This document shows, piece after piece, positions 817 through 960 of a stretch of 57,390 nucleotides of DNA. Below the pieces are notes generated by a model. It was not told the origin of the DNA and made no database searches. It worked only from the letters and a program-made list of their open reading frames with translations. The position numbers and the translations under genes were made by a program. The DNA lies in assembly GCA_038063335.1 (NCBI GenBank), contig JBBTVF010000045.1, positions 1 through 57,390 of the forward strand. Direction: 5' to 3'. Numbering within the stretch: position 1 is the stretch's first letter; every line of letters begins with the position of its first letter. Origin of the DNA: Patescibacteria group bacterium (lineage in GTDB: Bacteria; Patescibacteriota; Minisyncoccia; UBA6257; UBA9933).

Positions 817-960
817 ATCCTGTCACCCTTGAAAGATTGTGTTTTCCATAAACGCTTGCGATAAACGATAGTTAGTTTTCACAAATTGTTTATCTTGTGA
901 ATGAGTTTATTCTGTGAAGAAAAACAAACTGACGTTTAATATCTTTCAAGGGTACGGGAT
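817..960. mobile_element. F-family palindromic element, divergent copy (F6) in the 23S leader
   Basis: ATCCTGTCACCCTTGAAAGAT ... ATCTTTCAAGGGTACGGGAT inverted termini. Same size class and termini as the five copies in protein operons. Confidence 0.6.

Follow-up and report, generated by a model that had tools for sequence, protein, structure and literature searches.

A palindromic mobile element in the 23S rRNA leader of a Patescibacteria genome, and the probable origin of its paired base change

The palindrome of about 142 nt that lies in the 23S rRNA leader of this Patescibacteria genome is best explained, with a probability that we put at about 85%, as a non-autonomous element of the MITE kind that was inserted with duplication of a TAAA target. 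The paired base change in its ends, G831/C947, would have been brought in with the element and would not be a local compensation; the pairing of the ends would be kept through mobilisation, and the copy would be a tolerated passenger of the leader. The change itself had been pointed out in an earlier note on the window (the whole stretch of DNA analysed, 57,390 nt), and that observation is confirmed, as the arms and the swap of C and G on both of them read as described and pairing is kept. The interpretation given to it is partly supported, with the ends of a co-evolving mobile element being the better of the two readings offered.

The source genome (G000; assembly of 593 kb in 92 contigs, 36% G+C, 93% complete) was compared with a set of 41 related genomes, and its congeners are the sister genome G001, G002 and G003. 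The 5′ part of the 23S rRNA gene occupies positions 1-599 on the minus strand (Rfam LSU_rRNA_bacteria, 378 bits, model positions 1-531), which places the 5′ end at about 599. A sigma-70 consensus promoter for the 23S transcript (TTGACA, 16 nt, TATAAT; 12 out of 12 matches) is found at 1092-1065, also on the minus strand; it is conserved in both G001 and G002, and G003 has a positional equivalent. The element (818-959) lies downstream of this promoter and ahead of the 23S 5′ end, at a distance of about 220 nt from the mature end, and therefore within the predicted leader transcript of about 460 nt, in agreement with the earlier note; from the promoter match, we infer that leader transcription passes through it. 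As had also been noted, the copy does not adjoin a start codon on either strand, and it has no associated ORF. A search of the window with Rfam 15 returned only the 23S and four tRNA matches, with no family for 818-959. A leader/trailer processing stem, i.e. an RNase III site, was considered for the element and rejected, because the helix is internal to the leader and absent from three congeners; the leader-trailer complement of the 23S was located at about 600-640 instead.

Some 80-110 nt beyond its predicted start, the 23S leader also carries a terminator-like hairpin followed by a long U-tract, conserved in the leaders of G001 and G002. In the leader alignment, the G+C hairpin is at 982-967 on the minus strand, and the U-tract behind it is the landing site of the element, which splits it. 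At 633-666 and 1092-1125, the leader and its promoter are bracketed by two hairpins, each of 34 nt, that belong to a second palindromic family (CCCCCACACCA-type ends); neither is present in G001, and in G002 their places are taken by other hairpin units. In G003, a long member of this second family sits on the start of L29 with a TGAA duplication, and its terminal G rebuilds the GTG start.

The terminal inverted repeats of the leader copy are at 818-837 and 941-960 (plus strand). The left arm ends in CACCCTTGAAAGAT (824-837) and the right arm is ATCTTTCAAGGG (941-952), and a repeat search found the inner 13 nt (825-837 and 941-953, 103 nt apart) to be 100% complementary. The swapped base is G831, which pairs with C947, where the operon copies have C and G. 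About 20 nt of the repeats can pair if one bulge and one wobble are allowed, as the outer seven positions of the 817-960 helix are imperfect, with one bulge and one T-G pair, which reads as A-C on the rRNA strand. Searched with S at the swapped position, the arm motif has 11 occurrences in the window where 0.73 would be expected, a count that none of 100 shuffles reached. The swap could also be written as an inversion of the 5-mer TTCAA; this was set aside, since it is formally the same as a single-pair swap and yields nothing further.

The leaders of G001, G002 and G003 align with that of G000 on both sides of the element and are without exactly the element and one TAAA: in G000 there is a TAAA at 814-817 and another at 960-963, while the empty sites have a single one. 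This alignment shows that the element was inserted into a TAAA of the U-rich tract of the 23S leader, duplicating four bases. Over six ribosomal-protein genes (3401 aligned columns), identity was 92.1% between G000 and G001, 89.3% between G000 and G002, 82.6% between G000 and G003 and 89.7% between G001 and G002, giving the topology ((G000,G001),G002),G003. With empty sites in all three congeners, this topology requires one gain on the G000 branch or, alternatively, three precise losses without a footprint, and the comparison shows that insertion into the leader postdates the split from the sister genome. The promoter-proximal 140 nt of the leader are 97% identical between G000 and G001.

We consider it most improbable that the element was ancestral in the 23S leader and was precisely excised in G001, G002 and G003, in which case the swap could have evolved in place. 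Cut-and-paste elements are able to excise, and a divergence of 16-19% from the nearest relatives could mean that the copy is old; however, the losses would have to be independent and each restore the single TAAA, against one gain on a terminal branch, and the G/C state is also found in four unlinked copies in G002, so it predates any history at the leader site. A recent insertion is therefore retained as the reading of the leader site, and the exact empty sites in three congeners together with the 4-bp duplication make this copy the cleanest proof of mobility for the element family so far. The 4-bp duplications of other copies that are of the same sub-family or resemble it are TAAA, TTTA, TCAA and CAAG. 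With regard to what is expected of a MITE, the leader copy is short and non-coding (142 nt, below about 500 bp), has terminal inverted repeats, has a target-site duplication with a corresponding empty site, and belongs to a set of dispersed copies whose presence differs between relatives. As to an autonomous partner, the 294-nt members with the ends of the other sub-family, A, encode a GIY-YIG protein and nothing else; no full-length members of the leader copy's own type, B, were found.

Sub-family B consists of five loci, the leader copy and four in G002, and in all five the left arm has G and the right arm C at the swapped pair. Along its full length, the leader copy has 81-84% identity to the four G002 copies (for C21:2701-2853, C7:9674-9826 and C24:50-194, over about 150 nt), and it has no counterpart in the leaders of G001-G003. 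The interiors of sub-family B have a mean identity of 84% (alignment A3) and are unrelated to those of sub-family A. The sub-families also differ at a second pair, at arm position 6, which is T:A in A and G:C in B (the swapped pair is position 14), and the leader copy has the B-type interior and both diagnostic pairs. At least two paired differences thus set sub-family B apart from sub-family A, and the alignments show that G831/C947 is one of them. Because the G/C state is common to every B member, the swap was inherited with the element, having originated outside the leader.

In G002, one B copy is in the 23S-5S spacer and one is located just after the 5S gene, both in the sense orientation to the rRNA, and the leader copy in G000 has the opposite orientation. 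Sub-family B has therefore been shown to colonise rRNA operon spacers in either orientation. No B copies were found among the pattern matches in G001, and no other B copy in the 93%-complete G000 assembly. As there is neither a full-length B element nor another B copy in G000, and the nearest B copies differ by 16-19%, the donor would be unsampled, which counts against the reading as a mobile insertion. When 185,579 species genomes were scanned with the B arm, most of the matches were isolated chance occurrences in G+C-rich genomes, the real ones being G002 and a Wolfebacteria MAG (G015) alone. A metagenome scan with a motif from the B interior found, among the matches listed, the same four G002 loci alone, from other samples; it also filled the masked stretch of the copy in the G002 23S-5S spacer, which is an ordinary B member of 143 nt.

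The earlier note had taken the paired change as what selection on an RNA or DNA helix would predict. The helix might be a functional element of the pre-23S leader RNA, for example in processing by RNase III or in folding, with the paired change selected to keep it intact. The predicted minimum-energy fold of the 459-nt leader (z = -8.4, calculated over the leader as a whole) has the two arms paired, and the G000 genome has a gene for RNase III; the hairpin is therefore probably formed in the leader and possibly cut. B copies are also present in the rRNA spacers of G002 (23S-5S and after 5S), and covariation across the family is strong. We nevertheless find this reading very unlikely, since the sister genome and the two other congeners are without the element, although the flanking leader is 97% identical, and the swap is common to all B copies whatever their location. 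The lack of B copies among the G001 pattern matches and the orientation opposite to that of the G002 rRNA copies also argue against it. Furthermore, the outer stem has decayed. The transcribed strand of the leader copy folds at -39.8 kcal/mol and the other strand at -45.9 kcal/mol, the weaker fold being due to the one wobble pair, which is A-C on the rRNA strand, while the B copies of G002 pair throughout, with -50 to -51.5 kcal/mol. A required role is unlikely for an element that is absent from the sister genome.

The mobile-element reading of the leader copy would instead make it a tolerated passenger, which would be transcribed together with the rRNA, form a long hairpin and be discarded with the leader during 23S maturation. 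In a 0.6-Mb genome there are few sites at which such an insertion does no harm, and we read the rRNA spacers as being among them. More generally, a paired substitution in a copy of a repeat is not evidence of local structural selection if the copy comes from a mobile family with sub-families.

The other copies in the window belong to sub-family A, whose members have perfect ends of 20 nt and a length of 132-161 nt. The earlier note had counted the leader copy as a sixth copy, after five operon copies with the same arms. There are indeed six in the window, out of 11 in the whole G000 genome; the quoted arms are found in four of the operon copies, all on the minus strand, at L6/L18 (19756-19905, flush with a TAA stop and an ATG start), L16/L29 (22664-22807), L2/S19 (24731-24875) and S13/S11 (32854-33003). 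The fifth, between ftsA and ftsZ (44838-44977, minus strand), is an A copy with diverged arms.

Arm matches were found in 9 of the 41 relatives. Per strand, there were 10-11 in G000, 15 in G001 and 21 in G002; the congener G003 had none, and a genome of another genus (G008) and one of another family (G025) had 11-14. The occupied junctions also differ: L16/L29 is filled in G000 and G002 and empty in G001, L23/L2 has an A element in G001 only, and S19/L22 has an element in G002 only. This patchy distribution of the arms, together with the differing junctions, is that of a mobile repeat. At the L23/L2 junction, the G000 spacer (25721-25764 of the window) contains short CATGTTC tandem repeats.

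The type A copies directly abut the TAA of the gene before them and the ATG of the gene after them, and for such copies no target duplication was found, whereas A copies that are not flush with codons have a 4-bp TAAA duplication. At six flush junctions, the native spacer of the empty site (for example TTTTTT, AAGTTT or ACC) is gone when the window (19756-33003) is compared with G001 (L047), G002 (L048/L049) and G003 (L045/L046), and simple insertion does not explain the flush copies. When A interiors were compared for their orientation to the downstream gene, 164 related pairs ran the same way and 1 was reversed; this fixed orientation makes an RNA-level role or strand-specific insertion likely for type A. 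The elements at S13/S11 (32854-33003) and L6/L18 (19756-19905), compared with those at L047 and L048/L049, have identical ends and unrelated interiors in G000, G001 and G002. This pattern could come from repeated hits on one site or from an exchange of interiors through the identical arms, either of which would fit. Some A copies contain a nested mini-hairpin of the arm motif (G001 L047:12970-13138 and L058:401-569; G002 L048:3206-3381 and L066:565-742), which suggests insertion of an element into an element or an internal duplication.

A sub-family of about 160 nt in G025 (L100, L104, L105 and L102, with the element starting at 401 in each) has the element directly after a left-over ATG. Its arm reads ATG ATC CCT CAC CYT TGA (G variant) or ends in ...TAA (A variant), giving an in-frame stop five codons past the old start. 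As C or T at the swap position would give no stop, this position may matter for the coding context of copies that are embedded in mRNA, a hypothesis only, for which these four copies are the basis.

Covariation of the two ends was tested on alignment A2 (69 copies), with the 20 arm pairs as the structure, giving 1380 cells. Pairing was kept in 97.9% of the cells, compared with 91.9% in shuffles (none of 500 reached the observed value). Changes on both sides were seen in 72 cells (10.1 expected) and on one side in 14, so that the excess of compensatory over single-arm substitutions, whose absence from a larger alignment would have refuted the earlier note, was indeed found. Nine of the 20 arm pairs had changed on both sides, a number reached in 4 of 500 shuffles, and the covariation score was 0.195, against 0.080 in shuffles and at most 0.064 with the partners slid. 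Many of the two-sided cells are inherited within sub-families and are therefore not independent events. The swapped pair is the most variable one, and it occurs as all four Watson-Crick types in the 69 copies (C:G 45, G:C 9, A:U 5, U:A 4, wobble 4, other 2).

Covariation of this strength means that something keeps the two ends complementary. At the inner arm positions 14-20 the sequence varies freely while complementarity is kept, which is more like a helix than a protein-binding site, so that pairing of RNA or of single-stranded DNA probably matters somewhere. Among the 1120 cells of 56 gene-oriented copies, the mismatches on the sense strand were 11 G-U, 7 A-C and 8 others. An excess of G-U over A-C was considered as a sign of selection on the RNA strand and rejected, the difference between 11 and 7 being too small. 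As there is no clear strand bias, and B copies occur in both orientations, a constraint at the level of DNA or mobility fits at least as well as an RNA helix. The ends could stay complementary because only elements with matched ends or a foldable stem get mobilised.

Another explanation for the paired changes is concerted evolution, in which a fold-back or cruciform would let each copy use one of its arms as the template for repair of the other, so that such changes would carry no functional information. The arms are almost completely paired despite interiors that can hardly be aligned (44% mean column identity in the 69 copies), one close sub-family in G025 has the swapped pair as G:C, G-T and A:T, and the lack of a significant strand bias would also agree with it. 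However, repair of this kind is without direct evidence, decayed copies with one-sided changes exist (for example the outer arms of the leader copy), and the same pattern is equally expected if only masters with matched ends spawn copies. We therefore regard concerted evolution as rather unlikely, though by no means negligible, next to maintenance of the ends through mobilisation.

A candidate for the mobilising partner comes from members of 294-296 nt with A-type ends, which were found in G000 (contig 33:15285-15578, L164:401-694), G001 and G024 (L062:401-694 and L110:401-696), and as contig-end fragments in G002. This form has a single ORF of 88 amino acids with a GIY-YIG domain (PF01541, E = 1e-15), whose TGA stop lies inside the 3′ arm. 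In G015, a GIY-YIG gene with 56% identity is flanked by A-like arms of 22 nt, and other GIY-YIG paralogs are flanked by ends of the second palindromic family. Small GIY-YIG paralogs are numerous, with 7 matches in G000 and 9 in G001. A nuclease-bearing element of the B type was not found: GIY-YIG genes in G000, and those in the neighbourhood of the rRNA copies of G002, have A-like ends or the ends of another palindromic family.

From its position between the shared ends, the 88-amino-acid nuclease may be the partner that mobilises the elements, although to our knowledge GIY-YIG nucleases are not an established transposase family. We propose tentatively, with the odds still against it, that the whole family, including the B copies in rRNA spacers, is mobilised by this tiny nuclease acting on the folded stem and not on a sequence-specific end. 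An enzyme that acts on a folded stem would account for the freedom of the inner arm positions to vary, provided that they remain complementary. If true, this would be a class of prokaryotic transposable element without established precedent, whose miniatures have come to occupy the only space left free in ultra-small genomes, at gene junctions and in rRNA spacers. The covariation of the arms, the full-length form with GIY-YIG and the orientation-locked A copies together provide a testable case in which pairing, and not sequence, is required by the machinery or the host.

Among the papers listed in the literature searches, none described miniature inverted-repeat elements in CPR/Patescibacteria or inverted-repeat elements bearing GIY-YIG in bacteria; MITEAba12 is a named bacterial MITE (PMC6382973). 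The present family is similar to bacterial MITEs such as Correia/NEMIS in that its members measure about 100-160 bp, end in inverted repeats of about 20-26 nt, are bordered by a short target-site duplication and are dispersed in many copies, with patchy occurrence among close relatives, and also in being co-transcribed with neighbouring genes, with ends that form a long RNA hairpin. The Correia/NEMIS elements of Neisseria are MITEs with a TA duplication and characteristic ends of 26 nt. The duplication here is of 4 bp and TAAA-like, and the ends are not known to be related in sequence, so that a Correia/NEMIS identity was rejected. A further difference is that the sole coding relative with the same ends carries a small GIY-YIG nuclease and not an IS transposase, and the copies of sub-family A abut a stop codon on one side and a start codon on the other, with a fixed orientation.

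Intervening sequences (IVS) of 23S rRNA lie within helices of the mature 23S, are excised by RNase III and fragment the rRNA. The leader copy is likewise an extra stem-loop of about 100-150 nt in an rRNA transcript, sporadic between strains and dispensable; unlike an IVS, it is in the leader, and its family is mostly outside rRNA operons. An IVS was rejected as an identity for it, since the Rfam 23S match starts at 599 and the element is outside the mature 23S.

Rickettsia palindromic elements (RPE) are known for their in-frame insertion into coding sequence. The present elements share with them that they are small palindromic mobile repeats of a reduced genome, surviving in transcribed essential regions; in contrast to RPE, the leader copy is non-coding, and the family targets TAAA-like sites and gene junctions. 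The palindromes of the REP/BIME (RAYT) systems and those derived from IS200/IS605 are imperfect, 20-40 nt long and without target duplication, and their enzymes are of the Y1 (HUH) type. Intergenic palindromes, a small nuclease acting in trans and the importance of the hairpin over its sequence are common to these systems and the elements described here, which differ in having 20-nt terminal repeats with about 100 nt between them, a duplication of 4 bp and, as the candidate enzyme, a GIY-YIG protein.
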